Positions 94 to 61,894 of a stretch of DNA of 64,000 bases are shown here, piece by piece. The notes beneath the pieces are model-generated. The model had not been told where the DNA came from. It saw only the letters and a list, made by a program, of their open reading frames with translations, and did no database searches. The stretch comes from an uncultured Thermoplasmata archaeon. GTDB taxonomy: Archaea > Thermoplasmatota > Thermoplasmata > Halarchaeoplasmatales > Halarchaeoplasmataceae. The first letter of the stretch is position 1, and each line of letters starts with the position of its first letter. The position numbers and the translations under genes are program-made. Where the stretch lies: positions 69,776 through 133,775 of the forward strand of contig CAYWJQ010000006.1 of the NCBI GenBank assembly GCA_964458595.1, written 5' to 3'.

Positions 94-1752
94 TCACATC
101 CCGATAAGTCCCCCCATCACCGATCGAGCGATTATCGAAGCGATTACTCCTATCCAAGTCATCCCTACCGTGTGATACAGTACCGACATTTTGTGGCTCC
201 CAGCAGATAGGACCAAAGAAAGAGAGGCGAAGATAGCGTGAATAAGTATAGCAACGAGGACAAATAATTGTATCATATAAGGACTGTACTGGACCTGGTG
301 CAGTACACCGGAAAATTCCGAGGTTTGAGAGATCATCCCTATAGAATCGTTCATCATGACGGCTATATTTAAGGTCAAAGTAAGAGTCAGAGCAGCGCCT
401 AATCCTAATCCATAAAAAATACCTATCATGCTGGAGGCCTGCTGGTACCTATCTTTTCTCAATGAAAGTATCCTTACAAAAGTTTCTGAGATAATGTCAC
501 TCACTTCACGAACATCTGCACCTAGATCAGTGGATCCAGTATAGATATTAGTAAAAGTTGCTATAAGATTACTTCCGGTTCCTGAGGCGAAAAACCTCCA
601 AGCTCTTTCTTCATCGATCCTCGTAAGTAGTCTTTTATACAATTTTTCTATTTCCTCCGTTAATGGTCCAAAATCGTACTGTCTCAGTTTTTCTAGTGCG
701 TTCTCGACACTCCCGCCTTTCATAGCTATACTGCTCGCTATAGCTCTCATGAACGCGTCGTAGTTATTGTCGGATCTCTTCAATTTTTTCTCCGAGAAAT
801 ATATCATCAAACCGGGCGCGATCAACGGAGATAGGGAAACTGCTACTGTCCAAAATATATCTATACTTATATAATTGAAAAATACGTAAAAGAGGATAAC
901 ACCCCCTACCACACACGCTGGGATCACTTTTTTCAGTTTATCCGTTAGAGGCGGTCTTTTATCCAGCTGATGCCATATCGGATCGTTCGGCATGACCGTT
1001 TTTACGGCTACGGCCATTATTATTTCCATTATTATGAAAACTACAAGACCACCAGTAAGAAGTAGCATCGCTGAATTACCACTGAATATGGGAAGTATAC
1101 TCAAGAATACGAGTAGAAATAGTGTAGAAGTCATAAGAGCGATGAAGACTTCTTTCATCAAATCGAGAGTTTCTAGGGAAGATTTATACTCAGTTTCATA
1201 ATCTTTCAAAACTACGGAATGCTCTTTTTTAAGGAAAGTAGTCATGTTTTCCCCTGCTTCCTGAGAGTGAGCGAGACGAGTTAAAAAATCTGATAATCGT
1301 TCACTAGGCGTTTCTTCAGCCACATCTCTAGCCGCTTCAGGAAGGGGCATGTCCCAGTATTCCATCCTACTGTAAACCTTTTTGAGCTCATCAGCTAGAG
1401 ATCCATATTCGTCTACTTCAGAAAGCTTTTTTATCATCCTAGATTCCGATACTGCGGAAGTTGACAATGCCCAAAAGTAGGTGATCAACAGATGAAGGTA
1501 GGAATCTATTTCTTCCTCTTTTAATTTTCTTATTATTATCGGAAAGATTATAGCCAAAATGAGGATCACTGTTGGAAGGACATATTGAGTGAAATAAACT
1601 AGAAAACCTTCGAGAAGGATGCTAGGAAATATGAGTTGGGGAAAGAAAATTATAAGTATAAATATAGCTACGGCTGGGATCACACCGCCTAAGATGTAAT
1701 CCCTAAAGGACATCTCCATCTTCTTGTAATGTTCCAATATCTCTATGTCCAT
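94..1752 (-). CDS. flaJ: Archaellum assembly membrane protein ArlJ/FlaJ (TadC/GspF-like)
   Basis: 552-aa ORF with clusters of hydrophobic TM segments separated by soluble regions; terminal gene of a co-directional flaF-G-H-I-J block, 14 bp after flaI. Confidence 0.85.
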   Translation of the reverse strand: MDIEILEHYKKMEMSFRDYILGGVIPAVAIFILIIFFPQLIFPSILLEGFLVYFTQYVLPTVILILAIIFPIIIRKLKEEEIDSYLHLLITYFWALSTSAVSESRMIKKLSEVDEYGSLADELKKVYSRMEYWDMPLPEAARDVAEETPSERLSDFLTRLAHSQEAGENMTTFLKKEHSVVLKDYETEYKSSLETLDLMKEVFIALMTSTLFLLVFLSILPIFSGNSAMLLLTGGLVVFIIMEIIMAVAVKTVMPNDPIWHQLDKRPPLTDKLKKVIPACVVGGVILFYVFFNYISIDIFWTVAVSLSPLIAPGLMIYFSEKKLKRSDNNYDAFMRAIASSIAMKGGSVENALEKLRQYDFGPLTEEIEKLYKRLLTRIDEERAWRFFASGTGSNLIATFTNIYTGSTDLGADVREVSDIISETFVRILSLRKDRYQQASSMIGIFYGLGLGAALTLTLTLNIAVMMNDSIGMISQTSEFSGVLHQVQYSPYMIQLFVLVAILIHAIFASLSLVLSAGSHKMSVLYHTVGMTWIGVIASIIARSVMGGLIGM

Positions 1753-1766
1753 ATTATCTTAGCCTT

Positions 1767-3416
1767 TTATTTGATGCTAACTTGGGAGTCTTTTACTCTC
1801 AGGCGCGGTGGAAGAGATTCCATACCGCCTCTATGCCACTTTCTTAACACTTCTATGACTTCATCATAACCTAATATATCCTCTCTGATCATGTTTTTGA
1901 TGATCTGGGCTCTTTTTTCCAGCTCTAGATATATATCTCTTTTTTCGTCAAACCCCATCCTGGGGGCTATCTTTTCCTCCAAAACTTGGCTGTTGAATTT
2001 TCCTCTAAAGTCAAAACTGTCACTGACTGGGTCCCATCCAAATATCTCTCGGACTTCTACACTATCTTCTTCCCTCAAATAACCGGTAATTTCCGTTAAA
2101 GCCAACATCCTTCTTAGGAATTCTCCTCCGACATATACCGCCTGTTGGATGACCACGAAATCAAGGTTGGGGAAAAAGTGTAATGGAACATTGATGGGAT
2201 CTCCACTCATCCTCTGAATAAGTTTATGGACTGAAGCCGCGTGGAATGTGGACATAACCGGAACACCGGTCTGCATCGCTTGGAAAGCGATATTACCTTC
2301 TTCACCTCTGATCTCACCGACCAGTAATGCTTCTGGCCTACTCCTCATAGCGGCCTTTATCAGGTCAAAATATTCGACAGATATCTGCTCGTCTTCTGAT
2401 TCTTTGATTATCATCTGCTGCCATGTTTCTTGAGGAGGCTGAACTTCCGCCGTATCTTCTACGGAGTAAACCTTGTTGTCATGGGGTATGAAGGGCAGCA
2501 TCGAATTCAAAGTAGTGGTTTTACCCGAAGCTGTCTCCCCAGAAACTATGCATGACATGCCTTGTTCCATTGCCAGCCACATGTATGCACCCATCCTCGG
2601 GCTGAATGTATTCCACTTGATTATTTGTGGCATTGTCAGAGGCGTCTCTTCGAACTTTCTGATCGTGAAACTGGGACCTTTTATAGAGATATCTTCTGGA
2701 TATATTATATTTAATCTAGAACCATCTGGCATCGCGGTGTCGAATACGGCGTCCGAAGCGTTCACGTCCACATTTACTCTATCTCCAAGATTCACGAGAT
2801 ATTCGTCCAGTTTCTCCATATTTTCGAACTGGAGGTTAGTAGTCATCTCATCGAATATCTTATGGATGAGTTTGATAGGCTCTAGACCAACCACGTATAT
2901 GTCTTCTATATAAGGATCTCTCATAAGCGGTTCAAGAGGTCCAAGATCGGCTAAATCTCTCATGAGCCTGTATCTAACTCTTCTTACTCTCTCTTTTGGT
3001 ATATCTCGGCTGAACAAAAGCCCGTTAGTTTCTTTTTCCACGAACTCATCTACGGATTCTTCGATAAGATCTTTTAATTTCTCTGGATCGTCTTTTACGT
3101 CTTCGTAAGCTGCTTTTTCAAAGATATAATCCTGTATTTCTTCAAGAAGTTCTCTACTTTCAGTATCTAGTTCAGGTTCTACACCGTTGTATTTGTATCC
3201 ACTACCTTCGGTCCCATAAACGTGGACGAAGATAGGATCACCTATAGGATATATTATATTTATTTCATCTTGATCTTTTAGATCTCTATCAACTCTGTTT
3301 TTCAATACCGGTTCGTCGATGCCTCTACTCTGTAGACCTTTGATATACTCGTTGAGGTGCGAGTTCCTCTTTCTAGCTTGGGCTAATGAACTTTCATGCT
3401 GCTGTACAGGAGACAT
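1767..3416 (-). CDS. flaI: Archaellum ATPase ArlI/FlaI (secretion-type ATPase)
   Basis: Walker A GETASGKTTTLNS, 549 aa, 1-bp gap to flaH; typical FlaI size and context. Confidence 0.9.
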   Translation of the reverse strand: MSPVQQHESSLAQARKRNSHLNEYIKGLQSRGIDEPVLKNRVDRDLKDQDEINIIYPIGDPIFVHVYGTEGSGYKYNGVEPELDTESRELLEEIQDYIFEKAAYEDVKDDPEKLKDLIEESVDEFVEKETNGLLFSRDIPKERVRRVRYRLMRDLADLGPLEPLMRDPYIEDIYVVGLEPIKLIHKIFDEMTTNLQFENMEKLDEYLVNLGDRVNVDVNASDAVFDTAMPDGSRLNIIYPEDISIKGPSFTIRKFEETPLTMPQIIKWNTFSPRMGAYMWLAMEQGMSCIVSGETASGKTTTLNSMLPFIPHDNKVYSVEDTAEVQPPQETWQQMIIKESEDEQISVEYFDLIKAAMRSRPEALLVGEIRGEEGNIAFQAMQTGVPVMSTFHAASVHKLIQRMSGDPINVPLHFFPNLDFVVIQQAVYVGGEFLRRMLALTEITGYLREEDSVEVREIFGWDPVSDSFDFRGKFNSQVLEEKIAPRMGFDEKRDIYLELEKRAQIIKNMIREDILGYDEVIEVLRKWHRGGMESLPPRLRVKDSQVSIK

Positions 3417-3417
3417 C

Positions 3418-4113
3418 TTATCCCACCGAAGTGATTTCTAATACGAAACCGATTCCAGGCTCCACCCTGAATGCGATACTTTGAGAAACACCGCCTCCAG
3501 CTTTAGCAAATCTTTTTACATTTATCTCCTGAGAGACCGTACCTCCGACTTGGTTAAGTTCCATCTCGAAGAGCATATGAGCCGCTGAATAGAACGGAGG
3601 GAACAATTTTTCAGAAGTAGGCCCTGATTCTATATTCAATAACATCGTCTTACCCTGTGCGAGAAGTCTTTGTGTGAAGGTCTCTAGTTTCTGTAAGGAT
3701 TCTTCAGGATTAGAGTCTTTATTCACGAGAGCCGAGAACGTATCTACTATTATGATATCCGATTCGAATATCTTTTCTCCGCTCATGAGTTTTTCCACGT
3801 AATTCGTTGAAGACTCCTGTTGAAGCATTCCGTATATCGGTATGAATAGAAGATCATGGTTCAAGAGATAAGATGTGATTTTATACCCCAAAGAATCCAT
3901 CTGCTCGATAAAACCTTTGACTGTCAACTCAGTAGATATCACTGAAACCTGATAACCATTTTCTAAAAACCCATACGTTAAGCGCTGAGTGAAAACTGAT
4001 TTTCCTGTTCCATACCTACCTTCGACTATCCCAAGGGACGATGAGGGAAAACCTCCTCCGAGCATATCTGAGAGGTCATCTCGGGGTATATCTATCTCTC
4101 TTATCTCTACCAT
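3418..4113 (-). CDS. flaH: Archaellum protein ArlH/FlaH (KaiC/RecA-like)
   Basis: P-loop-like GRYGTGKS, 231 aa, sits between the flaG-like gene and flaI. Confidence 0.85.
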   Translation of the reverse strand: MVEIREIDIPRDDLSDMLGGGFPSSSLGIVEGRYGTGKSVFTQRLTYGFLENGYQVSVISTELTVKGFIEQMDSLGYKITSYLLNHDLLFIPIYGMLQQESSTNYVEKLMSGEKIFESDIIIVDTFSALVNKDSNPEESLQKLETFTQRLLAQGKTMLLNIESGPTSEKLFPPFYSAAHMLFEMELNQVGGTVSQEINVKRFAKAGGGVSQSIAFRVEPGIGFVLEITSVG

Positions 4114-4126
4114 CTATATCACTTTT

Positions 4127-4564
4127 CTATATAGTAAATTCTAAGGTGTCTTCCGATTGATGAGAAGCTACGACTTTTAACCAGTGATCGCCACTTTCTA
4201 ATTTAATATCGATTTTCACCTTTATAACCTCTGTGGGTGACCAGATGTTGTCATCCCCATCCACCAATTGGATAGACGAAGGCTGCTGTAAAGTGCCGTT
4301 GACAAGTATTTCTACATCGGTCTTATTCATGCTGGTCGAACCCGTATTTTTTACATAGACTATCAGAGGGTCATTCGGCATATTGTTTGGATCATTTATT
4401 ATTGATATGTCGCTCTTCAATCTTTCGCTTAACGCGTCTTCTCTTGATCTTATCCCGCTGGAGATCGAATCGGTAGAGGTGATGAAAACACCCGCTAGAG
4501 TCGATGCTACGACCATAGAGGCCAGAAAGAAGACCAGGTGCGAGCTCGATATAGAGAATCCCAT
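4127..4564 (-). CDS. flaG: Archaellum FlaG(ArlG)-like protein
   Basis: 145 aa; N-terminal hydrophobic segment MGFSISSSHLVFFLASMVVASTLAGV then beta-rich domain with KNTGST motif shared with the upstream FlaF-like ORF; F versus G assignment is by operon position only. Confidence 0.6.
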   Translation of the reverse strand: MGFSISSSHLVFFLASMVVASTLAGVFITSTDSISSGIRSREDALSERLKSDISIINDPNNMPNDPLIVYVKNTGSTSMNKTDVEILVNGTLQQPSSIQLVDGDDNIWSPTEVIKVKIDIKLESGDHWLKVVASHQSEDTLEFTI

Positions 4565-4576
4565 ATTTTTTACCTC

Positions 4577-5788
4577 CTAAATTCTTTCATAATCTGTTAT
4601 TCCATTTTCTAGAACTAGCTTTAATTTCGGACCCAAATTGAGTCTGAACCATCCATTCAATCCGTTACCGATGACTAAACTCCCGGCGACATCGATACCT
4701 CCTAATCGACTCCCCAACTCGTCTTCGATCGTCTGCACGAAGTTACCATCGGTATCGAAAACATCTATATGAGATCTAGAGTCGACAACATAAATTCGAG
4801 GTTCTGTAAAGTTTTGATCGCTGACGGTTATATTCGTCGGACTAGAGAGTTTCCCTCCGGAGATCAAATCTGTATGTGTGCTTCCGTTCAGAGCGTATCT
4901 TTCCACGCTATTAGAAGTTTTATTCACTATATAGATATGATCGCTAACATATATGTCGATCGCGCCATCCAGATTTGTTACCGCGGTATCATGATAGCTA
5001 CCATCTAGATTATACCTATCCACATGATCGTTACCGTCTAATACGTAAATATAATCTTGACTATTCTCATCAGTGACTGATATAGCCCTAGGGGAGGTCA
5101 ACTCACCGCCGTTAGCTATAAACTTGACTCCGTTTTTACCTTTAAGGTTAAATTTATCTATATGATTTTGATTATCGATAGCGAAAAGATTGCTGTAATT
5201 AGAAGAAACATCGGTAGCGTTATCCAAAACTCCTCCGTCTATAGTGTTTATCAAGTTATTTTTGTGATCATAAACCGAGATATTACCTCTATCTTCAACA
5301 TTTCCGTCTTCGATCACGTAAGTATAATTAGAATTAGTGCTGATCGGACCCGGGCGTACGATCCCCTTGCTGATTTTAATTTTTATTCTTTCGCTTATAT
5401 TTGATTTGAATTCCAGATCGATATTTTTCAATCTTATCTTTAGATCCTCTTCAGGCGGCCAGTGATATCCTTTACTTTCTAGGAGATCATAGCTAACATT
5501 TTCAGGATCTATTATTTTTCCGTCCAACATCACGTCGCTTTTCGTGGCGTTCAGAACGGTCGATCCAGTGTTTTTGACCTCTATCACAGTTTCATTATTT
5601 GTTCTATTGTAGAGAACGGACTGTATCTTTATATCCGTCTGCTGTCGAGATATCCTTCGTTCTGAACTGTTTTGTATCTGGGTCTCAAAACTTTCCATAC
5701 TGGAATAGAATGCGCCGGACAGGACCGAGAAAGTGACGATCAACGCCACAAATATTATCCCGCTAGAGCCCGCTACTGAGAAGCCCAT
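4577..5788 (-). CDS. flaF: FlaF(ArlF)-like protein with C-terminal NHL-repeat-like beta-propeller
   Basis: N-terminal TM plus KNTGST flagellin-like domain; C-terminal repeats of type SP-x-I-x-V-x-D-x(n)-IYVxD-x-N-x-hxxFxxxG (e.g. LTSPRAISVTDENSQDYIYVLDGNDHVDRYNLDGSY, LSSPTNITVSDQNFTEPRIYVVDSRSHIDVFDTDGNF); 403 aa, much longer than typical FlaF/FlaG. Confidence 0.55.
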   Translation of the reverse strand: MGFSVAGSSGIIFVALIVTFSVLSGAFYSSMESFETQIQNSSERRISRQQTDIKIQSVLYNRTNNETVIEVKNTGSTVLNATKSDVMLDGKIIDPENVSYDLLESKGYHWPPEEDLKIRLKNIDLEFKSNISERIKIKISKGIVRPGPISTNSNYTYVIEDGNVEDRGNISVYDHKNNLINTIDGGVLDNATDVSSNYSNLFAIDNQNHIDKFNLKGKNGVKFIANGGELTSPRAISVTDENSQDYIYVLDGNDHVDRYNLDGSYHDTAVTNLDGAIDIYVSDHIYIVNKTSNSVERYALNGSTHTDLISGGKLSSPTNITVSDQNFTEPRIYVVDSRSHIDVFDTDGNFVQTIEDELGSRLGGIDVAGSLVIGNGLNGWFRLNLGPKLKLVLENGITDYERI

Positions 5789-8700
5789 CTTTCTTTCACC
5801 ACCTCTTCGTCCTTATCTATCGGATGGACATTATCTCCGATGCTTATTTCGCTGCCATCGAACAGGAGTTCTCCACCATATCCGATCTCATCCTCTATAT
5901 GAACATTTTCTGACAATTTCACGTCTCCTCGGCAAGAAACTCTATTCACTTTGGTGTTTTTTTCCAAGATGACTTTTTCCTCCGCTTCTATATCGTTTAC
6001 TTCACTGCCTCTAGAGATCAGCACGGTTTTACCTTCTATTTTTCCACCGACTTTACAATCTTCACCGATATTCACGTCTCCCGATTCCGACGTCACGTCA
6101 TCCTGTATCTCGGTGCCTTCATTGATCTTTATATCACCTTCAGCGCTCAGAGAGCCCTCAACGTTGACATCATTCTCTATCTCGACATCGCTCTCTGATG
6201 CGATATTCCCCGATATCTCGGATTCGGGTTCAAGTTTTATCTCCTCTTCAGAATGGATTGTGCTGGTTTCGTCTTCTTCCGTTTTTTCTTCAGGTTCAGA
6301 AGTTAGATACTCCTCTTGGGTGATCTCTTCTGCCTCTTTTTGGTCTGATTCTTCCGTTTCTTCAGAGAGATCCTCAGAACCTACTTTGGCTTTTATATTC
6401 TCGGGTTCTTCGATCAATTCTTCCTCTTTCTCTACCACTTCCATCACTTCGTCCATCTCTTCTTCTAGATTTTCTTCAGGCTCGGGTCCTTCTTCAGACT
6501 TTTCTATCGAAGGTACCTCTTCTTCTTCGATATCTTCGTCTATTTCTCCAGTTCTTTCACTTGTCTCCTCGCCTGTCTTTTCTTTTATTTCCTCCAGATC
6601 ACCGATATCCTCTTCTCTTATTTCTTCCTCATCAGCTACTTCTCGACTTTCTCTTCCTTCTTTTTTCAAATCCTCTATCTCGTCCTTTAAGGAATCGATC
6701 TCACTCTCTAGATTTTTTATCATGTCCATCAATGTGGATTCTTCTGTTTCCTGTTTTTCTTTCTCTTCTTCGGTAACTTCGGTGATTTCTTCTTCGGGAG
6801 ATACTGCCTCTTCTATCTCTTCACTCTTTTCTTCAGTTTCTGGGAACCGAGGGGTTTTGATTTCCGCTTCTCCAGTTGGTTCCTCCGTTTCCTTTTCTTC
6901 ACTTGGGACTTCTTCAGTTATCTCTTCGGTTTCCTCCTCTACCGTAGTTTCTGGCTCACTTGCTTCCAGTTTTTCTTCTCTCTCGGTCGTTTCGATCTCT
7001 TCGAGAGGCTCGGTTTCCGCCCCTTCTTCTACAGAGACGGTTCCTTCGATTGCCTCTTCTTTTTCTGGCGATTCTCCCTTGATCTCTTTCATATCCTCTC
7101 TTAATCGATCTATCTCTTTCTCTAGATTTCGTATAGCCTCGATGATGGCAGAAGGTTCTTCTTGTGTCTCGTCTCTCTCCTCTTCTATATCTTCTTCTAG
7201 TTCCTTTATATCTTCCAATGTTTCTTTCTCTTCTTCGAAGGTCTCCATCTTTTCCTTTATATCTTTAGCTCTCTCTGGCTCTACGTCCGTTTCTTCTTCC
7301 TCTGTCTCCTTCAATTTTTCTAGCTCTTTTTTCAACATCCTATTCTCTTCTTTTAGTCCCTCAATAGCTTCCATTATCACGGAGGAATCCATAGTATCCG
7401 ATACTTCGGGTATGGTCTTTTCGTTGATCCTTTCGACCTTTTTTTCAAGACTCCTTTCTTGGTCCTCTAAGAATTGCATCATCCTTCTTACCTTGGAAAC
7501 GAGATGTTCTTCTTGTCCTCTCTGAATTCCTTCTCTAGTTTCTTCGGAAAGTTCTTCTTTCTTCTTCACCTCTAGATCCAGCTCACTTTTGATCAAGTCT
7601 ATATTTTCGTCCTCCATATCATCTGGATCGACAACGATCATGAATATGGTGGTCTTCACGGTTATCTGGTCCTGGAGAGATTGGATGAAATGGATGACCG
7701 TCGATTCGGGATTGTTTGAAAGTAGATAACCGATACCGTCTAGAAGGATTATCCCATCGTCTTCTGAGATGAATCTCTCTATCGTCAGTCCAAGTAGATC
7801 CAATTCATCAGGGCCTATAGCGATATCTTCACTAGAAGATGAAAGCCATCCGTATTCTACTCCGGTCATGTCGTACTTTTCTTTCACGTCGTCAGGATGT
7901 TTTCTAAGTAAACACAGCCCTGATCTTTCTTTAACTAGATCTTGGAAAACTTCATATGGGAACTCTTCATCAGATGTTTCTAAAAGGTACATCTTTCCAT
8001 CTTCGAGTTCCTCTAACAGTTTTTCACTAGACAGACCTCCTTCTTTTTCTTCTCCCACTGGACTCTGAGTCATCTCCATTTCTTGAGGTTCCTGCTTAGA
8101 GACTGCGGGTCCCGGCTCTTGGATACTTTTCTGGCTTTTTTCTTCCTGAGCTGGTTGTTGAGTCGGCTGCTGGGGTTCCGCTTCAGTCTTTTTAGGTTCT
8201 TCTACCTGTGTCTGAGACTGTTGGGCGGTCTGTGGTTCTTGGGATGGTTGTTGGAGGGGTGCAGTTTCTTTCTTTTTAGGTTCTTCTACCTGTGTTTGAG
8301 GCTGTTGTGGGGGCTGAGCTTCTTGAGTGGGCTGTTCAGGCTGAGTCTCAGGCTCCTGTGGCTCTGGAGTTTCCGGTTGCTCTGGTTCTGGGGAAGGTGG
8401 TTGTTCTTCCTGTTGTTCTGACGCCCCTTCCATCGGAGGTTCCGGACCTTCTCCACCCTCCGGACCTCCGATATCGGGCATCTCGGGAGATTCTTCAGGT
8501 TCCTCTTCCTCTGGAGGTTCTACGAGTTCATCGAGAGGGGATTCTTCGGAAGTTTCTTCACTCTCTTCTTCGGAAGAACCACCGAAATCCATGCTGTCCC
8601 AATCCTCTTCTTCGCCGCCTCCGGAGCCGCCCTCTCCGCTGCTTAGACCTCCACCCTCTTCGAGGAAGGGGTTGAATTCGGCCGTTACCATCTCATAAAC

Positions 8701-9045
8701 GTCCAATAACTGACTGATATCTTCTTCAAGATCGTTTACTCTTTCTTCGATATCGTCGACCGTGTCGTTCATCGTCTCTACTTTGTTTTCTACTTCACGT
8801 ATATCGTCTCGATTTCTATCTATATCGTCTCTAACATCGGGTGCTACACCCATACCTCCACCTTCTCCTCCCTGTGGTCCGATACCTTCATCTTCATCCA
8901 TATCGGCACCCATCGGACCCATTCCGCCCTCTTCTTCGTCTGCATCTATAATATCATCTATATCGCCTTCCGATCCTTCTTCGGCTTCGTTTTCTTCTTC
9001 TTCTTCCTCGTCATCTTTTCCTAACAACTTTCCGAAGTCTACCAT
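5773..9045 (-). CDS. Giant acidic mosaic protein in the FlaC/D/E position (coiled coil, P/Q/E-rich linker, DUF835-like domain, E/K-rich coiled coil, C-terminal beta-helix-like repeats)
   Basis: 1090-aa ORF overlapping flaF-like start by 16 bp; N-terminal motif YEMVTAEFNPF; central domain KMYLLETSDEEF...ILLDGIGYLLSNNPESTVIHFIQSLQDQ homologous to the C-terminus of the 26209-30207 ORF; C-terminal alternating V/I-x-G/D repeats. FlaC/D/E relationship is inferred from position. Confidence 0.6.
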   Translation of the reverse strand: MVDFGKLLGKDDEEEEEENEAEEGSEGDIDDIIDADEEEGGMGPMGADMDEDEGIGPQGGEGGGMGVAPDVRDDIDRNRDDIREVENKVETMNDTVDDIEERVNDLEEDISQLLDVYEMVTAEFNPFLEEGGGLSSGEGGSGGGEEEDWDSMDFGGSSEEESEETSEESPLDELVEPPEEEEPEESPEMPDIGGPEGGEGPEPPMEGASEQQEEQPPSPEPEQPETPEPQEPETQPEQPTQEAQPPQQPQTQVEEPKKKETAPLQQPSQEPQTAQQSQTQVEEPKKTEAEPQQPTQQPAQEEKSQKSIQEPGPAVSKQEPQEMEMTQSPVGEEKEGGLSSEKLLEELEDGKMYLLETSDEEFPYEVFQDLVKERSGLCLLRKHPDDVKEKYDMTGVEYGWLSSSSEDIAIGPDELDLLGLTIERFISEDDGIILLDGIGYLLSNNPESTVIHFIQSLQDQITVKTTIFMIVVDPDDMEDENIDLIKSELDLEVKKKEELSEETREGIQRGQEEHLVSKVRRMMQFLEDQERSLEKKVERINEKTIPEVSDTMDSSVIMEAIEGLKEENRMLKKELEKLKETEEEETDVEPERAKDIKEKMETFEEEKETLEDIKELEEDIEEERDETQEEPSAIIEAIRNLEKEIDRLREDMKEIKGESPEKEEAIEGTVSVEEGAETEPLEEIETTEREEKLEASEPETTVEEETEEITEEVPSEEKETEEPTGEAEIKTPRFPETEEKSEEIEEAVSPEEEITEVTEEEKEKQETEESTLMDMIKNLESEIDSLKDEIEDLKKEGRESREVADEEEIREEDIGDLEEIKEKTGEETSERTGEIDEDIEEEEVPSIEKSEEGPEPEENLEEEMDEVMEVVEKEEELIEEPENIKAKVGSEDLSEETEESDQKEAEEITQEEYLTSEPEEKTEEDETSTIHSEEEIKLEPESEISGNIASESDVEIENDVNVEGSLSAEGDIKINEGTEIQDDVTSESGDVNIGEDCKVGGKIEGKTVLISRGSEVNDIEAEEKVILEKNTKVNRVSCRGDVKLSENVHIEDEIGYGGELLFDGSEISIGDNVHPIDKDEEVVKERWASQ
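7570..8000 (-). other. DUF835-like domain inside the giant archaellum-operon protein
   Basis: About 140-aa segment with strong similarity to the C-terminal domain of the IleRS-like ORF (shared LL..G.EYL / IQS.KDQ pattern); family name recalled from memory, needs HMM confirmation. Confidence 0.5.
8186..8310. repeat. Two-copy tandem repeat (about 83-bp period) inside the giant gene, encoding repeated QVEEPKK...PQQP peptide
   Basis: tttttaggttcttctacctgtgt(c/t)tgag(a/g)ctgttg occurs at about 8190 and again at about 8273. Confidence 0.7.
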
Positions 9046-9107
9046 ATCTTACCACCTTCCAGCACAAATATGAATTTGGCATCTCACCTTATTTAAACTC
9101 TTCCGTA

Positions 9108-9785
9108 TCATTTCAGATTCACCTTCCTCGAAGTGTAAACTGAAGGAGTAGTGAAGGAGATCTGAGTGGATTGACCCGTCTGAGGGATGAGTTTGATATC
9201 TACGGGCGTATTTGGTTCGAGATCGAGACCTATTGCATTAGCGTCGATGTAAATCTTTACCAAGGTGCCCTGTTCCATCACATTGGATTCGGCATAAACA
9301 CCTTCAGGATCTCTCAGTACCTCGGTCGTAAAATTATCTTTATCCGCTCCGGTCGGATCATCGACAGTTGAGTTGTGAAGTAGCTCGCCTGTCGCGTTTC
9401 CATCGTCTATTATTATTACAACATCGTCCATATCTAAAGGTCCACTTCCCGCCTGAAGACGGACTATTATCTCTACAACCTGTATATTTTTCTTCGTTGG
9501 ATTACTTGATTTTCCGTTTTTCTTTCTATCTCCTACGACCGATAGCGTATTCATACCGGTGCTCACCTCTGAAAGAGCTTGATCGGCTGTACTTTCCGAT
9601 TGATTCTGAAGTTTTGTCACCGTGTCAACTAAGACTCCAGCGACGATCGCCGTTATCAGTATGGTAGCTATCAACAGCATCAGTGAACTTACCCCAGTAG
9701 ACCCGGAGTCGTCTTTAGATAGACGGGTCTCTCTGTACGGGGAGGACTCTTGAAATAACTCAGTCTCTCTTAAGTCCTTAAGCAT
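9108..9785 (-). CDS. Divergent archaellin-like protein (class III signal peptide), first gene of the minus-strand accessory operon
   Basis: Hydrophobic N-terminal helix SGSTGVSSLMLLIATILITAIVAGVLVDTVTKLQ and C-terminal IKLIPQTG..TTPSVYTSRKV resembling the archaellin C-terminus [27 protein letters not shown]; long N-terminal extension, so start is uncertain. Confidence 0.7.
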   Translation of the reverse strand: MLKDLRETELFQESSPYRETRLSKDDSGSTGVSSLMLLIATILITAIVAGVLVDTVTKLQNQSESTADQALSEVSTGMNTLSVVGDRKKNGKSSNPTKKNIQVVEIIVRLQAGSGPLDMDDVVIIIDDGNATGELLHNSTVDDPTGADKDNFTTEVLRDPEGVYAESNVMEQGTLVKIYIDANAIGLDLEPNTPVDIKLIPQTGQSTQISFTTPSVYTSRKVNLK

Positions 9786-10118: not shown

Positions 10119-10727
10119 ATGAAAAAACTAAAACGAAAAGATGAAGAAGGGGCGATGGGCGTTGGGACGCTCATCATATTCATAGCCATGGTTCTAGTCT
10201 CGGCAGTGGCGGCCAGTGTACTCATCGACACAGCTAATAAGCTCCAACAGCAGGCAGAGAAAACTGGTGATCAGGCGATAAGAGAAGTCTCTACATCATT
10301 CATTGTAAAGGGTATTTTTGGATACGATGCCTCGAGTGGAGATGAAAGTCCAAATGAGATAGGGAACATATCTTTAAAAGTAGGTTTGGCAGCAGGTGCC
10401 CCTGCACAAAATCTTAATCAGACAGTGATCCAGATTACCAATGATACTAGTGAAGAGAATTTAGTAGCAGCAGGTGATAGTAGTACATCGGCAAATGGTG
10501 CTCATTATTCCTGGAATCCGATAATAGAACAACAGGGAAATGATAATCAGTATGTAGAACAAGGGGATCTTTATAATGTAACGATAAATATGAATAAGGC
10601 CTTAGGTGGACCAGTAGGAACACAGGCAGAAATATCCATTCAGATAATACCCAAGCACGGGACACCAACCTACGAAAAGGTGACAACGCCGCCCGTGATG
10701 ACTTCAAAAATTGTCGATCTCACCTAG
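10119..10727 (+). CDS. flaB: Archaellin (FlaB/ArlB family) 1
   Basis: Class III signal peptide [43 protein letters not shown]; conserved C-terminus [29 protein letters not shown]. Confidence 0.9.
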
Positions 10728-10737
10728 ATCTATCACT

Positions 10738-10765
10738 TAAAAACCTTTATTTTTTCATTTATCTG
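10738..10765 (+). terminator. T-rich terminator-like element after archaellin 1
   Basis: aaaaacctttattttttcatttatc directly after the stop; similar motif follows each archaellin transcription unit. Confidence 0.45.
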
Positions 10766-10914
10766 ATCTTGAAAAAATTTGTTTTCATCTTCACCCTAAA
10801 GTCTTATTGGTCTTGATAATAGAACAAAAAAATAGGCTTTGGTAAACAGAGTTTATTCTATAATTATGGAACAACTCTTAGTAATTAGAATTTAAAAATT
10901 AAAAGGATAATTTC

Positions 10915-10935
10915 TTCCGAATTTATATAATCGAT
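10915..10935 (+). promoter_or_regulatory. BRE/TATA-like promoter element of archaellin 2
   Basis: ttccgaatttatataatcgat, identical to the element at 10054. Confidence 0.6.
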
Positions 10936-10975
10936 AAGGGAGGTGATTAAGATAGTAAAAAGAAAGGAGGATACA

Positions 10976-11575
10976 ATGGCAGGAACAAAACGATTAAAAC
11001 GAAAAGATGAAGAAGGCGCGATGGGCGTAGGAACGCTCATCATATTCATAGCCATGGTTCTAGTGTCGGCTGTGGCGGCCAGTGTACTTATCGATACCGC
11101 TAATAAGCTCCAACAGCAGGCAGAGAAAACAGGCGATCAGGCGATCCGAGAAGTGGCGACCTCGTTTATAGTGAAGGATGTTATAGGATACAATGGAAAA
11201 GACGGTGAGATAGGAAATATATCTTTGAAAGTGGGCCTAGCGGCCGGAGCGCCCGCTCAGTCCTTGAACCAGACGGTTATACAGGTTCAGACCGATTCGA
11301 ATCAGGCGCATCTTACGGCTGCGGCTCAAGGATATGGTCCTGGATCTAACAATTATTCATGGCGAGAGGTCATCGAACAGGAAGATACTTTCAACCAGTA
11401 CTTAGAACAAGGAGATATAGTGAATATAACGATAAATCTGTATGAGATGTTCGGTAAAACAGTCGGGACTCAAAGCGAGATCTCCATCCAGATAATACCA
11501 AAGCATGGGACGCCAACCTATGAAGAGATAACGACGCCGCCCGTGATGGTAAGCAAGATCGTCGAGTTCACCTGA
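10976..11575 (+). CDS. flaB: Archaellin (FlaB/ArlB family) 2
   Basis: Same conserved N- and C-termini as archaellin 1; start placed at ATG 10976 (GGAGG 7 nt upstream) rather than the GTG at 10943 in the ORF track, which lies almost inside the promoter element. Confidence 0.88.
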
Positions 11576-11586
11576 GGATAGATACA

Positions 11587-11615
11587 GAAAACCTTTCCCT
11601 CTTTTCATTATTATA
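11587..11615 (+). terminator. T-rich terminator-like element after archaellin 2
   Basis: aaaacctttccctcttttcattattat. Confidence 0.45.
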
Positions 11616-11697
11616 TTGCACACGTGCGTGAAGATTGGTTATATTTTTCTATTTTTTCAAAATTGATAATCAGGGATGAATAATCAGAGAAATAATC

Positions 11698-11721
11698 GTT
11701 TCCTAATTTATATAGTGAATA
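11698..11721 (+). promoter_or_regulatory. BRE/TATA-like promoter element of the archaellin 3-4 pair
   Basis: cgtttcctaatttatatagtgaat, followed by conserved leader atcatgctgtatccgagaggagataaaacatg. Confidence 0.6.
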
Positions 11722-11762
11722 AGAGAGGTGATTATCATGCTGTATCCGAGAGGAGATAAAAC

Positions 11763-12401
11763 ATGAGAAGGATAAAACGAGAAGACGAAAAAGGAGCGAT
11801 GGGCGTAGGAACGCTCATCGTATTCATCGCAATGGTACTGGTAGCCGCGGTAGCGGCCAGTGTACTTATCGACACAGCGAACAAGCTACAGCAGCAGGCA
11901 GAGCAAACAGGTGATCAAGCGATCAGGGAAGTATCGACCGCATTCCAAGTACACGATGTATTTGGATATAATGCTGCTGGTGACAATAAGATAGAGAATC
12001 TAACGCTTAAAGTAGGTTTAGCGGCAGGAGCGCCAAGTCAAGACCTGAATCAAACTGTAGTTCAGGTTTCAGGTCCTTCTAGCGAAGCGAATCTACTAGC
12101 AGTAGATAGCGACAATTATGATCTTGGCGAAGGAGCAGATAGTGATTCGTATGCGATAGACAATATAATCGAGCAAGAAGATGGTGGATCTGTAGAGTTT
12201 TCAGATGTCCGCTATTTAGAACAAGGAGATCTAGTGAACATAACGATAGCTATAGATGAAACTTCAGTAGGTGGGCCAGGCACTGGGATAGGTCCTCAAA
12301 CAGATCTATCGATCCAGATAATGCCGAAGCACGGCACGCCGACCTACGAGGAAATAACCACACCACCAGTGATGACAACGAAGATAGTTGATTTAAACTA
12401 A
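11763..12401 (+). CDS. flaB: Archaellin (FlaB/ArlB family) 3
   Basis: [61 protein letters not shown]; variable middle; conserved C-terminus. Confidence 0.9.
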
Positions 12402-12410
12402 GGTGATAAC

Positions 12411-13022
12411 ATGAGAAGGATAAAAAGAGAAGATGAAAAAGGAGCGATGGGCGTAGGAACGCTCATCGTATTCATCGCGATGGTGCTAGTAGCTGCGGTA
12501 GCAGCTAGCGTTTTGATCGATACCGCGAACAAGTTACAGCAGCAGGCAGAACAGACAGGAGATCAAGCGATCAGGGAAGTATCCACCGCTTTTACCGTTA
12601 AAGACGTCTATGGAGTAGACGGAGGAACTTATGGTGATGAAAACGGCAAGATAGACACGTTATACATGAAGATAGGCCTAGCGGCAGGAGCTCCTGCTCA
12701 GGACATGGACCAGACGATCATACAGCTGAAAAATGATACTGCAGAAGCAAATCTACAGAACGGAAGTAGTGCAGGATCTTCTGATTATACAATAGACCAG
12801 GTCATCGAACAAAGTGATCCTGAAGATGGTTACTTAGAACAGGGTGACATCCTCGAGATAGAAATAGATGTCACTTCAGCACTAGATGATGGATCGGCTA
12901 CCGTTGGATTAGGTCCACAGGAAGATGTTTCCATACAGATAATACCGAAGCACGGTACACCTACCTACGAACAGATCACCACGCCGCCTACGATAATTAA
13001 CACCCATGTAGACCTAGGTTAG
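12411..13022 (+). CDS. flaB: Archaellin (FlaB/ArlB family) 4
   Basis: N-terminal 60 residues identical to archaellin 3; 9-bp intergenic spacer (ggtgataac), so co-transcribed with archaellin 3. Confidence 0.9.
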   Translation: MRRIKREDEKGAMGVGTLIVFIAMVLVAAVAASVLIDTANKLQQQAEQTGDQAIREVSTAFTVKDVYGVDGGTYGDENGKIDTLYMKIGLAAGAPAQDMDQTIIQLKNDTAEANLQNGSSAGSSDYTIDQVIEQSDPEDGYLEQGDILEIEIDVTSALDDGSATVGLGPQEDVSIQIIPKHGTPTYEQITTPPTIINTHVDLG

Positions 13023-13029
13023 ATGCGAT

Positions 13030-13075
13030 GAAAAACCCTTTCCCTATTATTATTTTTAATTCTTTTTTAATTTAA
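13030..13075 (+). terminator. T-rich terminator-like element after archaellin 4
   Basis: gaaaaaccctttccctattattatttttaattcttttttaattt; near-identical to the element after archaellin 6. Confidence 0.5.
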
Positions 13076-13125
13076 CTCCTCTATTTTCAAAATAACTCCT
13101 CCTCTCTGTTATCGTTGTAGATAAT

Positions 13126-13149
13126 CGTTTCCGAATTTATATAGTGAAT
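13126..13149 (+). promoter_or_regulatory. BRE/TATA-like promoter element of the archaellin 5-6 pair
   Basis: cgtttccgaatttatatagtgaat plus a leader identical to that of archaellin 3. Confidence 0.6.
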
Positions 13150-13191
13150 AGGAAAGATGATTATCATGCTGTATCCGAAAGGAGATAAAAC

Positions 13192-13800
13192 ATGAGAAGG
13201 ATAAAAAGAGAAGACGAAAAAGGAGCGATGGGCGTTGGGACGCTCATCGTGTTCATCGCGATGGTACTGGTAGCCGCAGTAGCGGCTAGTGTACTGATAG
13301 ATACAGCGAACAAGTTACAGCAGCAGGCAGAACAGACAGGAGATCAAGCGATCAGAGAAGTTTCGACCGCATTCCAGGTGCAGGACGTGTTTGGTTATGA
13401 CGCCTCTAGTGGGGGCTTAGAGAATATAACATTGAAGGTAGGCTTAGCAGCAGGTGCACCAGCACAAGATCTGAATCAAACGGTGATACAGATATCTGGA
13501 CCAAGTAATGAAGATAACTTGATCGCACCCCATAACAGCAGTGACTATGCAGATGGTGGTAACTATTATATCAGAGGCATAATCGAACAGGAAGGTGACA
13601 CAGGTACATTCTCAGATGTCCGGTATTTAGAGCAGGGAGATCTTGTTAATATAACAATATCTCTCACTGATAGTGATATAAGTAGTCCAGTAAGCACCCA
13701 GACGGATTTGTCGATCCAGATAATGCCGAAGTACGGAACGCCGACCTATGAAGAGATCACCACGCCGCCAGTGATGACATCGAAGATAGTAGATCTATGA
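13192..13800 (+). CDS. flaB: Archaellin (FlaB/ArlB family) 5
   Basis: Conserved archaellin N- and C-termini. Confidence 0.9.
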
Positions 13801-13813
13801 CAAAGGTGATAAC

Positions 13814-14398
13814 ATGAGAAGGATAAAAAGAGAAGACGAAAAAGGCGCGATGGGCGTGGGAACGCTCATCGTATTTATCGCCATGGTACTGGTAGCCGCG
13901 GTAGCGGCCAGTGTACTGATCGACACAGCGAACAAGTTACAGCAGCAGGCAGAACAGACAGGAGATCAAGCGATCAGAGAAGTTTCGACCTCGTTCACAG
14001 TTAAAGATGCCTACGGACAAGACAACGATGATGATGGCCTGATAGAGGATGTTGTTTTAAAGATAGGATTGGCTGCAGGTGCTCCTGCACAGAACTTAGG
14101 TCAAACGATGCTTCAGCTAAAAAATGATACGGCTGAAACTAACGTTAAAGTCACGAGTACCTCTTACAGTAAAGTGATCGAACAGGATTCTGATGGTCAA
14201 ATAGATTATTTGGAACAGGGAGATATAGTGAAAGTTGAAGTTACAGGTATCGGTACTGCTAGTTATTTCGATACTGGGAATGGTCTTGGTACTCAGCAGG
14301 ATCTTTCCATCCAGATAATACCGAAGCACGGCACGCCGACTTACGAGCAGATAACAACACCACCTACGATAGTAGATCAACACGTAGATCTTACCTAA
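13814..14398 (+). CDS. flaB: Archaellin (FlaB/ArlB family) 6
   Basis: Conserved archaellin N- and C-termini; 13-bp spacer to archaellin 5. Confidence 0.9.
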   Translation: MRRIKREDEKGAMGVGTLIVFIAMVLVAAVAASVLIDTANKLQQQAEQTGDQAIREVSTSFTVKDAYGQDNDDDGLIEDVVLKIGLAAGAPAQNLGQTMLQLKNDTAETNVKVTSTSYSKVIEQDSDGQIDYLEQGDIVKVEVTGIGTASYFDTGNGLGTQQDLSIQIIPKHGTPTYEQITTPPTIVDQHVDLT

Positions 14399-26208: not shown

Positions 26209-29200
26209 ATGGGAAATAGTCGGGAGCTAAATCCTCAAGAACTGGAAAAAGAGATTCTTCAGTTTTGGAGGTCAGAAGATATCAACGATGAATTGATCGA
26301 TTCTAGGAGGGGTGGTAGAAATTATTATCTGGCTAGACCCCCTTTTCCTGTCAAAGATGAACTTAGCTGGGACGAATTATATGGCAATATAATCTACGAT
26401 GCGTGGGCCCGATTCATGAGTATGCGCGGTTTTAACGTCAGAAACGGTATAGGGACGGACCCGTTGAGTCTCAGGATAGAGAAATTGGCCTTGAAAGAAG
26501 AGGGTCTCAGATGCTTGAAAACTTCACTTGAGGGTCATGAAAGTTTTTCAGAGGACCTCTCTGACAGGGCTGAAGTCCTAAAGGAAGAGACCTTCGATCA
26601 TCTTCAGCATCTTGGGCTTTGGACGAACTCGGAATATGATTATGAAACTACCTCCGGTAAATTTATAGACTCGATATGTTGGACTATCAAAGAACTGATG
26701 GAAAAAGATTTACTCGCAAAAAAAGAGAAGCCCGTAAGATGGTGCCCAGAATGTAAAATTCCTGTGATGGGTTCCGAGAAGTCCACTAGAGAAGAACCGA
26801 GGAATGACCCCATAGTGAAGGTCCCTCTCGCGAGCGGGAAAGAGAGATATTTCCTAGTGGAGATAAAAGATTTGTGGAAACTACCCGCGAGCCTGTCTTT
26901 AGCCGTGAATCCGAAAATGAAATATTCGGTCATAAAATCTACTACAGGGGATGGAGAGGTCGAACAATACGTGGTTCTCCAGGAAAAAGCGGCCGAGATG
27001 ATGGAGAAAGCGGGAAGAAGATACACCGTTTTGAATACGGTAGATGGTAAAAAATTAAAAGGACTTTCCTTCAGATATCCTTTGGGAGAAAAGATACCCG
27101 AAAAAGTAGAAATTGATTGTGAACATAAAAGAAGGGTTTTAGGTACAGATGAGGTGAATGAGGAGGGAACCGGTATCGAATTTTTGGTTCCTCCGTATGA
27201 AGAGAGCCATCTTGAGATCGCCGAAGAAAATGATATGAATATCTACGATCCGCTTCGGGATAATGGTTACTTTGATGGGGGACCGAGGAAGAATAAATAT
27301 TCGGGTCTTTCGACTTTCCAAAGCGAAGAAGTGATCTTAGATGATCTTAGAGCTAAAGGATTATTGTTTTGGAATGAACGAGAACAAAGGAAAGTAGAAG
27401 TTTGCGACGCCTGCAAGAGTAAACTTATAAGACATAGAAAGAAGGAATGGTTCTTCGACAGTGAGAGATTCGAAGAAGACATAGGTGAGGGATTAAATCA
27501 GATCGAGACCCTGCCTTCCAATAAAAATTTGAAAGTGGACGATTGGTTAGTTACTAGGGATAATCACTGGGGCATGGCTTTCCCGATTTGGAGGTGTGAA
27601 TGCGGTAAATCTTTTATACCCTCAGAGCGGAAGGAATTAGCCGATAACTCGGACTATGATGTAGATGATCTATTCATCCCGGAAACGATGAAAAATATAG
27701 AAGTGGAATGTCCCGAATGCGGTAAAAGGATGGACCGTGATGACAGGGTGATCACCCCCTCACTTTTGAGAGCCGCATCCCCCTGGGCTCAGATAGGATA
27801 TCCCCATGATGAAAAAGGATATCAGTCGTGGTGGCCCGGAAAACTGATGATAGGTAGCGATCCAAGAGAGGACGGTTTATTTTCTGCAAATCTTAGTTTG
27901 TCTCTTTCTTTATTTGATGAGCCCAGCATCGAAAAGATTTTGCTCAAAGGAACGATCATAAGCGAGATAGATTATAAGAACGTGAAAGGACTGGTAGACA
28001 ATCAGGGCCACGATACATTGAGAATACATCTTTTATCGGACTCACATCTCTGGGAAGATCGAAAGATCGAAGGAGATAACCTTCAAGAACCTCATCCGAT
28101 GATAAGAGTCCTTTGGAACCTGCATCAGTTCTTTAAAGACAATTTGAGAACATTGGATTTAGAACTGGAAGATCTAGTATCGGAACCGGATTTGGAAAGA
28201 TTAGAGGTGGAGGATAGATGGTTGTGTTCCTGTTTGGAAACGACCAAAGAGGTTTCCCATGAATATTACGAACATGGAAGGATAGACGAGGCTCAGAAAG
28301 TATTTCAAGATTTTATCCTAGAGGATTTTGCTCAATGGTATATAAGTTTAGCTAGAGAGAGACTCGGTGATGGTAAGGAGAACGAAGAAAATATATTGAG
28401 CGCGATGTACCGTTGTTTGAAGGACATATCGAAATTGATATTCCCTATAGCTCCTTTCATCGGTGAAAAGATATATCTCGATCTTAATGAAGATGAGAAG
28501 AGCGCTTTCCTCTCAGGATGGCCTGATTTTGAAGAGAAGTACCGTTCCCTCGAGTTAGAAGATGAGATGAAAGAGATCAGAAGAATAGTAAATGAAATAA
28601 AAGAGATCAAGCGGAGAGAAGAACTGCCTGAGAAATGGCCGCTAGATGAGATAATATACAAACCGAAGGATGAAGAAAGTAAGGACCTGATCGAAAGATA
28701 CAGCCACGTTATCAAAGACAAGGCCAAAGTGAAAATAGTCAAAATTTTAGAGGTGGGAGAGGAATGGGAAGATTCCATCCTTAAAGTGAGACCCAACGAG
28801 GAGACCATAGGAAAGTCTTATCAGCAGTGGAAAAGCAAGATTGCTACCATGCTGCAACAAAGGTCTCCCGAAGAGATAAGAAAAGGCGTCGAGGAAGGCG
28901 AGTTCACCATGGGATTAGAGGGTCAGATCATAGAAATAGAACCGGAGATGGTGGAATTCGAAAAGGACATGCCCGAAGGATACAAAGAATTGTCTTTAGA
29001 CGGACATGATATCTTCGTTAATCTGGAGGTCACTAACCAGATATGGGAAGAAGAGATGGCCGATGAGATCATACTTAGATTGAAAAGTATGCGAGAAGAC
29101 ATGAATCTTGCTGAGGAAGATGAGATAGACGCTTATATTTCAGGGGAGGATTACATTATAGAAGCGGTGGAAAATCATATGGCGGGGATAAAAGAAAGGA

Positions 29201-61658: not shown

Positions 61659-61684
61659 ATGGTAAAAATCATAAGGTGAAATGA

Positions 61685-61870: not shown

Positions 61871-61894
61871 TAAATAATAAACACCATCACGTTT

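Follow-up and report, generated by a model that had tools for sequence, protein, structure and literature searches.

An ArlF-like archaellum protein carrying a conserved, probably nested NHL-type beta-propeller in uncultured Thermoplasmata

The window analysed here is a stretch of 64,000 nucleotides from contig CAYWJQ010000006.1 (assembly GCA_964458595.1), and near one of its ends lies an archaellum gene cluster. One gene of this cluster, at positions 4577-5788 of the minus strand, is the subject of this report: its N-terminal part is ArlF-like, and the remainder of its product is an NHL-type beta-propeller under purifying constraint, which was probably inserted into the archaellin-type fold and not simply appended to it. 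All coordinates are positions in the whole 64 kb window, and residue numbers refer to the 403-residue product of the gene, which we call the target protein. The gene, its segments and their supporting evidence, including models built with AlphaFold2 (AF2), are as follows.

4577-5788 (-), target gene, ArlF with a probably nested NHL-type beta-propeller (list of open reading frames, ORFs; ATG start, 403 amino acids and a stop codon)
5639-5788 (-), residues 1-50, N-terminal hydrophobic segment and helical stalk (AF2 helix at residues 3-50)
5399-5638 (-), residues 51-130, main part of the archaellin-type beta-sandwich, with VKNTGST and W110-P-P112-E-x-L-K-I (NCBIfam ArlF, PF01917)
5360-5398 (-), residues 131-143 (ISERIKIKISKGI), connecting segment that may serve the propeller as its ring-closing ('velcro') strand (inferred)
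4634-5359 (-), residues 144-385, six-bladed NHL-type beta-propeller (AF2, Foldseek, profiles)
4580-4633 (-), residues 386-403 (GPKLKLVLENGITDYERI), probable canonical final strand or strands of the ArlF/G archaellin fold, placed after the propeller (profile gain)

The initial annotation of this ORF had noted an N-terminal transmembrane segment and a KNTGST motif, and both are seen, the former as a hydrophobic helix and the latter within VKNTGST at residues 71-77, where N73 and G75 are invariant in the family. The gene stands among the following archaellum genes.

94-1752 (-), arlJ (ORF; motor core, synteny in 20 genomes)
1767-3416 (-), arlI (ORF; motor core, synteny in 20 genomes)
3418-4113 (-), arlH (ORF; Pfam KaiC-type ATPase; motor core)
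4127-4564 (-), arlG, 145 amino acids, canonical stator filament protein and presumed partner of the target (NCBIfam ArlG 119.5 bits, cut-off 110)
5773-9045 (-), arlC-type fusion, 1090 amino acids and very acidic: FlaC_arch, DUF835 (iKaiC) and a bactofilin-like C-terminus (Pfam; isoelectric point, pI, 4.05)
9108-9785 (-), divergent archaellin heading the accessory operon (class III leader; PF01917 E 1e-27)
10119-14398 (+), six tandem archaellin genes, divergent to the operon (ORFs with class III leaders)

Minus-strand positions 94-9785 thus form a tightly packed archaellum accessory operon, in the order arlB, arlC fusion, target in the arlF slot, arlG, arlH, arlI and arlJ. The start of the target gene overlaps the stop of the upstream arlC fusion by 16 nucleotides, the gap to arlG is 12 nucleotides, and the genes downstream of the target are separated by 1-14 nucleotides. 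For genes identical to the motor-core genes of the window, the families T2SSE and T2SSF are on record. The position of the target gene, after arlC/D/E and directly before arlG-arlH-arlI-arlJ, fits an Arl1-type cluster, for which the order arlC/D/E-F-G-H-I-J has been given (PMC10117864). Apart from arlG, no other ArlF-like gene was found in the window; therefore the target must supply the ArlF function, if the motor needs one.

We surveyed one genome per species for a full-length match to the target protein. Twenty species-level Thermoplasmata genomes carry such a match, and in all of them the gene order is arlB...arlC(DE)-arlF(propeller)-arlG-arlH-arlI-arlJ. These genomes split into two clades: a close one (loci L001-L006), whose ArlI is 73-95% identical to that of the window, and a distant one (L007-L022), whose ArlI is about 42% identical and thus as remote as haloarchaeal ArlI. 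A protein identical to the target (P0001) is present in the metagenome-assembled genome GCA_905333805.1, and contig CAJOVR010000004.1 of that assembly contains the window sequence without a difference. Relatives carry the label uncultured Thermoplasmata.

The ArlF-like character of the N-terminal part can be read from several comparisons. The NCBIfam ArlF model (NF052590) matches residues 1-143 over model positions 1-137 of 137 with 99.1 bits (E 2.3e-28), as opposed to 47.0 bits for the NCBIfam ArlG model, and Pfam PF01917 (Arch_flagellin) matches with 31.9 bits against a cut-off of 29.5. The protein begins MGFSVAGSSGIIFVALIV, with the conserved MGFSVAG followed by a hydrophobic helix and with no class III signal-peptide leader; the MGFS motif is common to the target and ArlG, whereas the seven archaellins of the window carry class III leaders of 10-12 amino acids. 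An ArlF score well above the ArlG score, the absence of a class III leader and the invariant arlF position are three marks of an ArlF, and all three are found here, in agreement with the FlaF/G-like N-terminus proposed in the initial annotation. Its remark that FlaF and FlaG proteins are typically about 150 amino acids long was also sound. A profile of residues 1-143, run against 1.84 billion representative proteins, gave 1147 matches at E<=1e-3, and among the best 150 of these about 131 are 104-180 amino acids long, while 19 have at least 260. When the AF2 model of residues 1-143 (predicted local distance difference test, pLDDT, 74) is compared with known structures by Foldseek, the top four matches are FlaG and FlaF-FlaG of Sulfolobus acidocaldarius (5TUH, 5TUG, 6PBK; E 3e-3 to 3e-2), and 4P94 stands at rank 11.

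Since the fold appears to be of the archaellin type, one may ask whether the protein is instead a minor archaellin or pilin-like adhesin in or on the filament, where the propeller would mediate adhesion at the tip or along the side. Some multi-domain ArlF-like proteins do lie outside archaellum loci (P0149, see below), and the distant clade has a giant archaellin with an insert. The target, however, lacks the class III leader borne by the seven archaellins of the window, scores higher as ArlF than as ArlG and only weakly as an archaellin, and is invariably found in the arlF slot, with no other arlF present. We regard the adhesin as very unlikely.

Residues 144-385 consist of six repeats of 37-44 amino acids each, with the pattern (S)P-x-x-I-x-V...-h-Y-V-x-D-x-x-x-h-I-x-x-F/Y, which is sharpest in blade 3 (residues 229-272) and blade 5 (313-356). 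The full-length AF2 model, built from a 15-sequence family alignment, has a mean pLDDT of 82 (about 88-95 over residues 141-310) and places 23-25 beta-strands in residues 146-402, in groups of four, so that six four-stranded blades make up a closed propeller. A Foldseek search of this model against the PDB puts the NHL domains of Lin41/TRIM71, TRIM3 and Brat and the NHL-derived design Pizza6 on top (E 7e-12 to 6e-9, template-modelling score, TM, up to 0.79).

At the level of sequence, the relationship appears mainly when profiles are used. Taken as a single sequence, the target has no Pfam NHL match at E<=1, reaches 19.2 bits with DUF5128 ('6-bladed beta-propeller'), which is below the cut-off of 22.9, and finds a sole, borderline match among the PDB sequences (Thin NHL, E 2e-4). 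A profile of residues 144-403 from 11 members, run against the same PDB sequences, retrieves Thin (1e-11), TRIM2 (4e-11) and Brat (5e-10), as well as the multi-propeller YWTD receptors LRP4/LRP2 (1e-20 to 4e-26). Against 5.8 billion proteins, the profile returns the ArlF-linked members first and then hundreds of standalone prokaryotic PF01436 (NHL), PF17170 and PF08450 proteins. With hhalign, comparison with 16 standalone PF01436 proteins gives 99.6% (E 6.7e-25, 220 columns), and in global mode 99.9% (E 2.8e-34, 278 columns). One family member, P0036, passes the Pfam NHL model on its own (24.0 bits, cut-off 20). We conclude that residues 144-385 are a divergent member of the NHL/YWTD superfamily of six-bladed propellers, closest to NHL, an assignment that is due to profile and structure comparison and not to single-sequence Pfam. 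The NHL-like repeats proposed in the initial annotation are therefore real and go beyond what chance would give; of the Pfam/HHpred check named there, the single-sequence Pfam half finds no NHL and the profile half does, and the structure prediction also named there yields the propeller described above. Matches to CIS12 of contractile injection systems (19.8 bits, cut-off 860) and to the propellers of KIB1-4, IFT122 and WDR35 were set aside as generic propeller similarity.

It is important to determine where the propeller sits with respect to the archaellin fold, that is, which segment supplies the last strand of the sandwich. Short canonical ArlF and ArlG proteins end in W-x-P-G-E-x-L-x-h-x-h, a spacer of 6-12 residues, the motif P-x-R-V-K-V-V-T-E-N-G-V-s and a handful of final residues. 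In the target, this terminal motif is found at the extreme C-terminus, in residues 386-403, past the propeller. We scored the alternatives with a custom profile of 125 short ArlF/G proteins. Residues 1-130 alone score 117.5 bits; adding residues 131-143 raises this to 120.0 bits, and adding residues 386-403 in their place raises it to 128.2 bits. The tail gain is thus +10.6 bits in the target, and over 37 family members the mean gain is +11.4 bits, compared with +0.2 for segment 131-143, the tail outscoring that segment in 36 of the 37. Tail gains of 10.6-16.6 bits exceed those of all 300 shuffled tails (maximum 3.9-6.5) and of every propeller 18-mer (maximum 3.0-5.3 bits).

Other comparisons point the same way. 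In members from the distant clade, the match of the N-terminal piece to NCBIfam ArlF breaks off near position 122 of 137. An extra N-terminal segment precedes blade 1 in the standalone NHL homologues, at the target's residues 134-143, and these homologues stop after strand C of blade 6, so that the tail has no NHL counterpart. Few stretches of the family are as well conserved as the K-V-V-x-E-N-G of the tail, and with the propeller spliced out the target aligns with the neighbouring ArlG into LKLV/LKVV. Because the strand motif with which canonical ArlF/G proteins close is present in the last 18 residues, we consider it likely that the propeller interrupts the archaellin fold immediately ahead of its last strand or strands. 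The chain would leave the sandwich, form the propeller and return in residues 386-403 to complete the sandwich; the two ends of the propeller would then lie side by side, which would make it a rigid outgrowth of ArlF. Residues 135-139, which form a strand in the full-length model and a helix in the isolated N-terminal model, possibly act as the ring-closing strand of the propeller.

Conversely, the protein may be a plain tandem fusion, in which ArlF is complete at residue 143, with RIKIKISKGI as its last strand, and the propeller, including tail 386-403, is appended C-terminally; the function would be the same. The full alignment of NCBIfam ArlF to residues 1-143 agrees with this arrangement, as does the strand at residues 135-139 of the full-length model. 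Moreover, residues 388-392 could be strand D of blade 6, for a total of 24 strands, and genuine C-terminal fusions exist in other ArlF proteins (P0164, P0263). The NCBIfam model also tells against insertion in that it barely separates the two candidate last strands in the target (tail +5.1 bits, segment 131-143 +3.4 bits), a lead of only 1.7 bits for the tail. Yet the mean gains in the family, the result in 36 of 37 members, the distance from the shuffles, the truncated ArlF match in the distant clade, the early end of the NHL homologues and the conservation of the tail all oppose a tandem fusion, and we find it doubtful, although it deserves to be kept in mind. What stands of the fusion claimed in the initial annotation is the combination of FlaF and propeller in one ORF; the C-terminal extension that it implied is less likely than nesting in the ArlF fold.

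The unusual length of the ORF alone raised the concern that two genes had been merged, by a frameshift or in a chimeric contig. The whole-protein search recovered 16 full-length homologues of 377-403 amino acids, the propeller profile about 36, and the N-terminal profile more still. The same uninterrupted ORF of about 377-420 amino acids occurs in independent assemblies from many projects, and the family conserves both the tail and the motif P-G-x-I-S at the junction. Since a single ORF is kept in 20 species-level genomes, together with the gene order, and in about 37 cluster representatives, a frameshift joining two genes, which the initial annotation had named as a possible refutation, is excluded; to an artefact of any kind we assign a negligible probability.

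In order to assess constraint we used column entropy in place of dN/dS, because the nearest relative has 76% protein identity, which implies saturated synonymous sites. Over the 37-member alignment, mean column entropy is 1.95 bits for the propeller and 2.24 bits for the ArlF sandwich. The propeller (30-78% identity) matches or surpasses the ArlF N-terminal part (22-74%) in both clades, and per-domain identity of the target protein tracks that of ArlG, ArlH, ArlI and ArlJ. Conservation in the propeller centres on Gly, Pro and Tyr and on the Asp that each blade has in its YVxD strand. Given the synteny, the per-domain identities and the entropy across both clades, we conclude that the combination of ArlF and propeller is old, has been kept vertically in the operon and is under constraint. 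In databases, family members are named 'hypothetical' or plain 'FlaF'.

The searches also returned other extended ArlF-like proteins, as listed here.

P0220, 627 amino acids: the same NHL propeller with a nested Laminin_G_3 domain, in a locus with archaellins and arlC/DE
P0134, 565 amino acids: the same NHL propeller with a further insert of about 150 amino acids without family assignment
P0263: ArlF followed by three PKD domains, encoded between an arlD/E gene and an arlG gene
P0164: ArlF followed by a PQQ-type propeller, passing the ArlF cut-off
P0149: ArlF-like part with fn3 and MAM-like domains, outside an archaellum locus
P0251, P0157 and P0135: ArlF/G-like N-terminus combined with Ig-like inserts inside the protein, with an insert of low complexity, or with four archaellin domains in tandem

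The NHL family of the target includes P0220 and P0134, in each of which one more domain is nested. P0263 and P0164 resemble the target in joining an ArlF N-terminal domain to a surface-binding module, and differ in that they are true C-terminal fusions with different folds. With NHL, Laminin_G_3, PKD, PQQ-propeller and fn3/MAM-like variants all found, extra modules typical of surface-binding proteins recur on ArlF.

In the published model of the archaellum stator, the pseudoperiplasm is spanned by an ArlG filament whose ArlF cap attaches to the S-layer, an anchoring that torque requires (PMC8667602, PMC10117864, PMC13319060). The model rests on Sulfolobus and Pyrococcus. For the protein described here, we believe it somewhat probable that it is the stator subunit ArlF, whose archaellin-type sandwich bears the six-bladed NHL-type propeller of about 240 residues as an envelope-docking module. 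The N-terminal helix and sandwich would keep the interaction with ArlG, and the propeller would provide a distal docking surface that fixes the stator to a component of the envelope, such as a surface (glyco)protein or a glycan layer, so that ArlI and ArlJ could push against a fixed support. What the bare ArlF sandwich does at the S-layer of Sulfolobus, and the peptidoglycan-binding domain of MotB in bacteria, would here fall to the propeller. Its most likely role is that of a distal binding domain through which the stator would be anchored to the envelope, and the different envelope interaction suggested in the initial annotation is plausible.

Three observations favour binding over catalysis: NHL domains without enzymatic activity are the closest relatives in structure; what is conserved in the propeller, namely Gly, Pro and the YVxD-strand Asp of every blade, is of a structural kind; and relatives add lectin-like modules, such as the Laminin_G_3 inside the propeller of P0220. 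We count the independent fusions of ArlF to other surface-binding modules (PKD in P0263, PQQ-propeller in P0164) for the docking reading as well. A propeller could instead act as a sensor, binding a small ligand as does the extracellular NHL sensor of PknD, or as an enzyme of the lactonase, phytase or strictosidine-synthase-like kind, and so modulate the motor or modify the envelope. Against this, the best matches by every method are to non-enzymatic NHL domains, the target protein has no Pfam SGL or Str_synth match, and we saw no His/Glu/Asn set conserved as a metal site, the invariant positions being Gly, Pro, Tyr and a structural Asp per blade. On these conserved positions we judge an enzyme unlikely, and a sensor or enzyme taken together distinctly improbable.

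Propellers commonly serve as ring-forming or scaffold modules. It is therefore conceivable that the propellers of several ArlF copies form a ring, spacer or bushing round the base of the filament, with no separate envelope ligand; conservation of the whole propeller suits self-assembly as well as ligand binding, and ArlF of S. acidocaldarius is dimeric and forms heterotetramers with ArlG (PMC10117864). The lectin-like inserts and the parallel PKD and PQQ fusions, however, point to outward binding modules, and we hold such a structural collar to be unlikely.

If the propeller docks to the envelope, then a candidate for its partner is encoded nearby.

16459-18843 (-), candidate envelope partner (hypothesis only), a surface protein of 794 amino acids (signal peptide, repeats, CARDB/Ig-like domains, C-terminal transmembrane anchor)

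This type-I anchored protein has a repeat region of about 400 amino acids, with W-E-D-x-R-x-G...IYY-K repeats. In all 12 of the 12 distant-clade loci that are long enough, arlJ is immediately followed by the gene for a homologue of this protein (E 6e-44; e.g. L015 17877-21005), and the family is thus linked to the archaellum cluster in both clades. We treat it as a lead for the ligand of the propeller. A broader proposal would be that ArlF serves as an adaptor built of modules, the distal one being swapped according to the envelope, and that the nested propeller docks the cluster-encoded, membrane-anchored surface protein, a lineage-specific anchoring of the stator that replaces docking to the S-layer. 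We put this forward tentatively, as possible and not as probable.

Several considerations weigh against the docking interpretation. The ArlF score of 99.1 bits (99.0 with the propeller spliced out) lies below the curated equivalog cut-off of 110, and by that cut-off the protein therefore falls outside strict family membership. The N-terminal model resembles the solved FlaF and FlaG structures weakly (E 3e-3 to 0.1, TM 0.34-0.49), and neither phmmer nor the N-terminal profile found an ArlF/FlaF match at E<=1 among the PDB sequences. The replacement of S-layer docking by the propeller is a conjecture, and the linkage of the 794-residue surface protein to the cluster may reflect shared ancestry alone.

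It is instructive to compare the target with systems already described. Like ArlF of S. acidocaldarius and Pyrococcus furiosus (4P94; ArlF-ArlG 5TUG/6PBK), it has an N-terminal hydrophobic helix without a class III leader, what is probably an archaellin-type beta-sandwich, a gene beside arlG in the arl cluster and a presumed role as a stator cap at the envelope. Those proteins, however, have about 130-170 residues and bind the S-layer with a bare sandwich, whereas the target has a six-bladed propeller of about 240 residues that is probably built into the fold; its sequence similarity to the solved structures is undetectable, and its similarity in fold is weak. Compared with other NHL propellers, namely those of TRIM2, TRIM3, TRIM71, Brat and Mei-P26, the PknD sensor (1RWI) and the prokaryotic PF01436/PF17170 '6-bladed beta-propeller' proteins, the copy in the target is so divergent that it obtains no single-sequence Pfam NHL score. 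It does not follow a TRIM, filamin or kinase module but probably lies within an archaellin fold, and it is extracytoplasmic in an archaeon. The OmpA-like peptidoglycan-binding domain of MotB/PomB is a functional analogy only, in the sense of a dedicated wall-binding stator module that enables torque; fold and motor are unrelated, ion-driven in MotB/PomB and ATP-driven here, and there is no homology.

Within the searchable literature, we found no description of ArlF/FlaF combined with a propeller or an NHL domain, and the propeller-bearing ArlF is apparently a conserved variant that has not been described. Cultured Thermoplasmata are without a paracrystalline S-layer. A 2025 study of Thermoplasmatales that lack an S-layer reported no special binding motif in the ArlF of the cultured species and left the question of anchoring standing (PMC12448462). 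The target is an ArlF-like protein that visibly bears a dedicated, strongly conserved module of a binding type, with a named candidate partner encoded in the cluster. Together with the PKD, PQQ-propeller and lectin-like variants, it offers a testable handle on envelope docking and suggests the stator cap as a modular adaptor. That proposal, if true, would answer the question raised in PMC12448462 of how archaellum stators hold without an S-layer. A nested propeller would, in addition, mean that archaellin-fold proteins tolerate the nested insertion of a domain.

Other features of the archaellum cluster deserve mention in their own right. The arlC fusion at 5773-9045 (-) contains 34% aspartate plus glutamate (D+E), with FlaC_arch at residues 81-127, DUF835 or 'inactive KaiC' at 359-489 and a bactofilin-like segment at 956-1046. 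DUF835 goes by the name 'iKaiC' in PMC5847659. The fusion has no Arch_fla_DE match, while its distant-clade relatives are normal FlaC+Arch_fla_DE fusions (L015 8866-10011). An iKaiC module adjoining the KaiC-like ArlH may represent a different way of coupling to the motor.

The clusters also contain a second ArlI paralogue, 40-44% identical to ArlI (L001 15702-17306, L015 14211-15869 and equivalents in L002-L022), which follows arlJ in the close clade and is flanked by arlI and arlJ in the distant one; in the window's own genome it would sit just beyond the left edge of the window. The giant archaellin of about 570-600 amino acids (L015 5873-7591, equivalents in L007-L022, and L028 1627-3435) shows the N-terminus of an archaellin (residues 17-81) and, beyond a long insert without family assignment, a C-terminal part that again resembles archaellin; this may be another nested insertion in the archaellin fold in these lineages.

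Outside the archaellum cluster, the window encodes at 26209-30207 (+) a class I aminoacyl-tRNA synthetase of 1332 amino acids (tRNA-synt_1, Anticodon_1 and DUF5915) fused to a helix-hairpin-helix and a C-terminal DUF835/iKaiC, a rare domain that it has in common with the ArlC fusion. A tRNA gene of 122 nucleotides at 42411-42532 (+), found with Rfam (54 bits) and missed by ARAGORN, presumably contains an intron. Beside it, at 42604-45600 (-), lies the gene for a 998-residue protein with a segment of solute-binding-protein family 5 and a C-terminal InlB B-repeat-like (Flg_new_2) domain, probably another surface protein. A hybrid sensor kinase of 1211 amino acids at 46335-49970 (-) has a receiver domain, at least six PAS domains, HisKA and HATPase.

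Further along, an RHS-repeat/YD-shell protein of 1802 amino acids with DUF6531 (56250-61658, +) is followed by an RHS fragment of 403 amino acids (61973-63184, +), so that 56250-63184 is a polymorphic-toxin-like locus in an archaeal genome. Finally, the proteins of the window are acidic, cytoplasmic and surface proteins alike, with pI of about 4.5-4.8 and D+E of 18-24% in ArlI, an M3 peptidase and the tRNA synthetase. This acidity matches the pattern known from salt-in halophiles, and it suggests a saline habitat.

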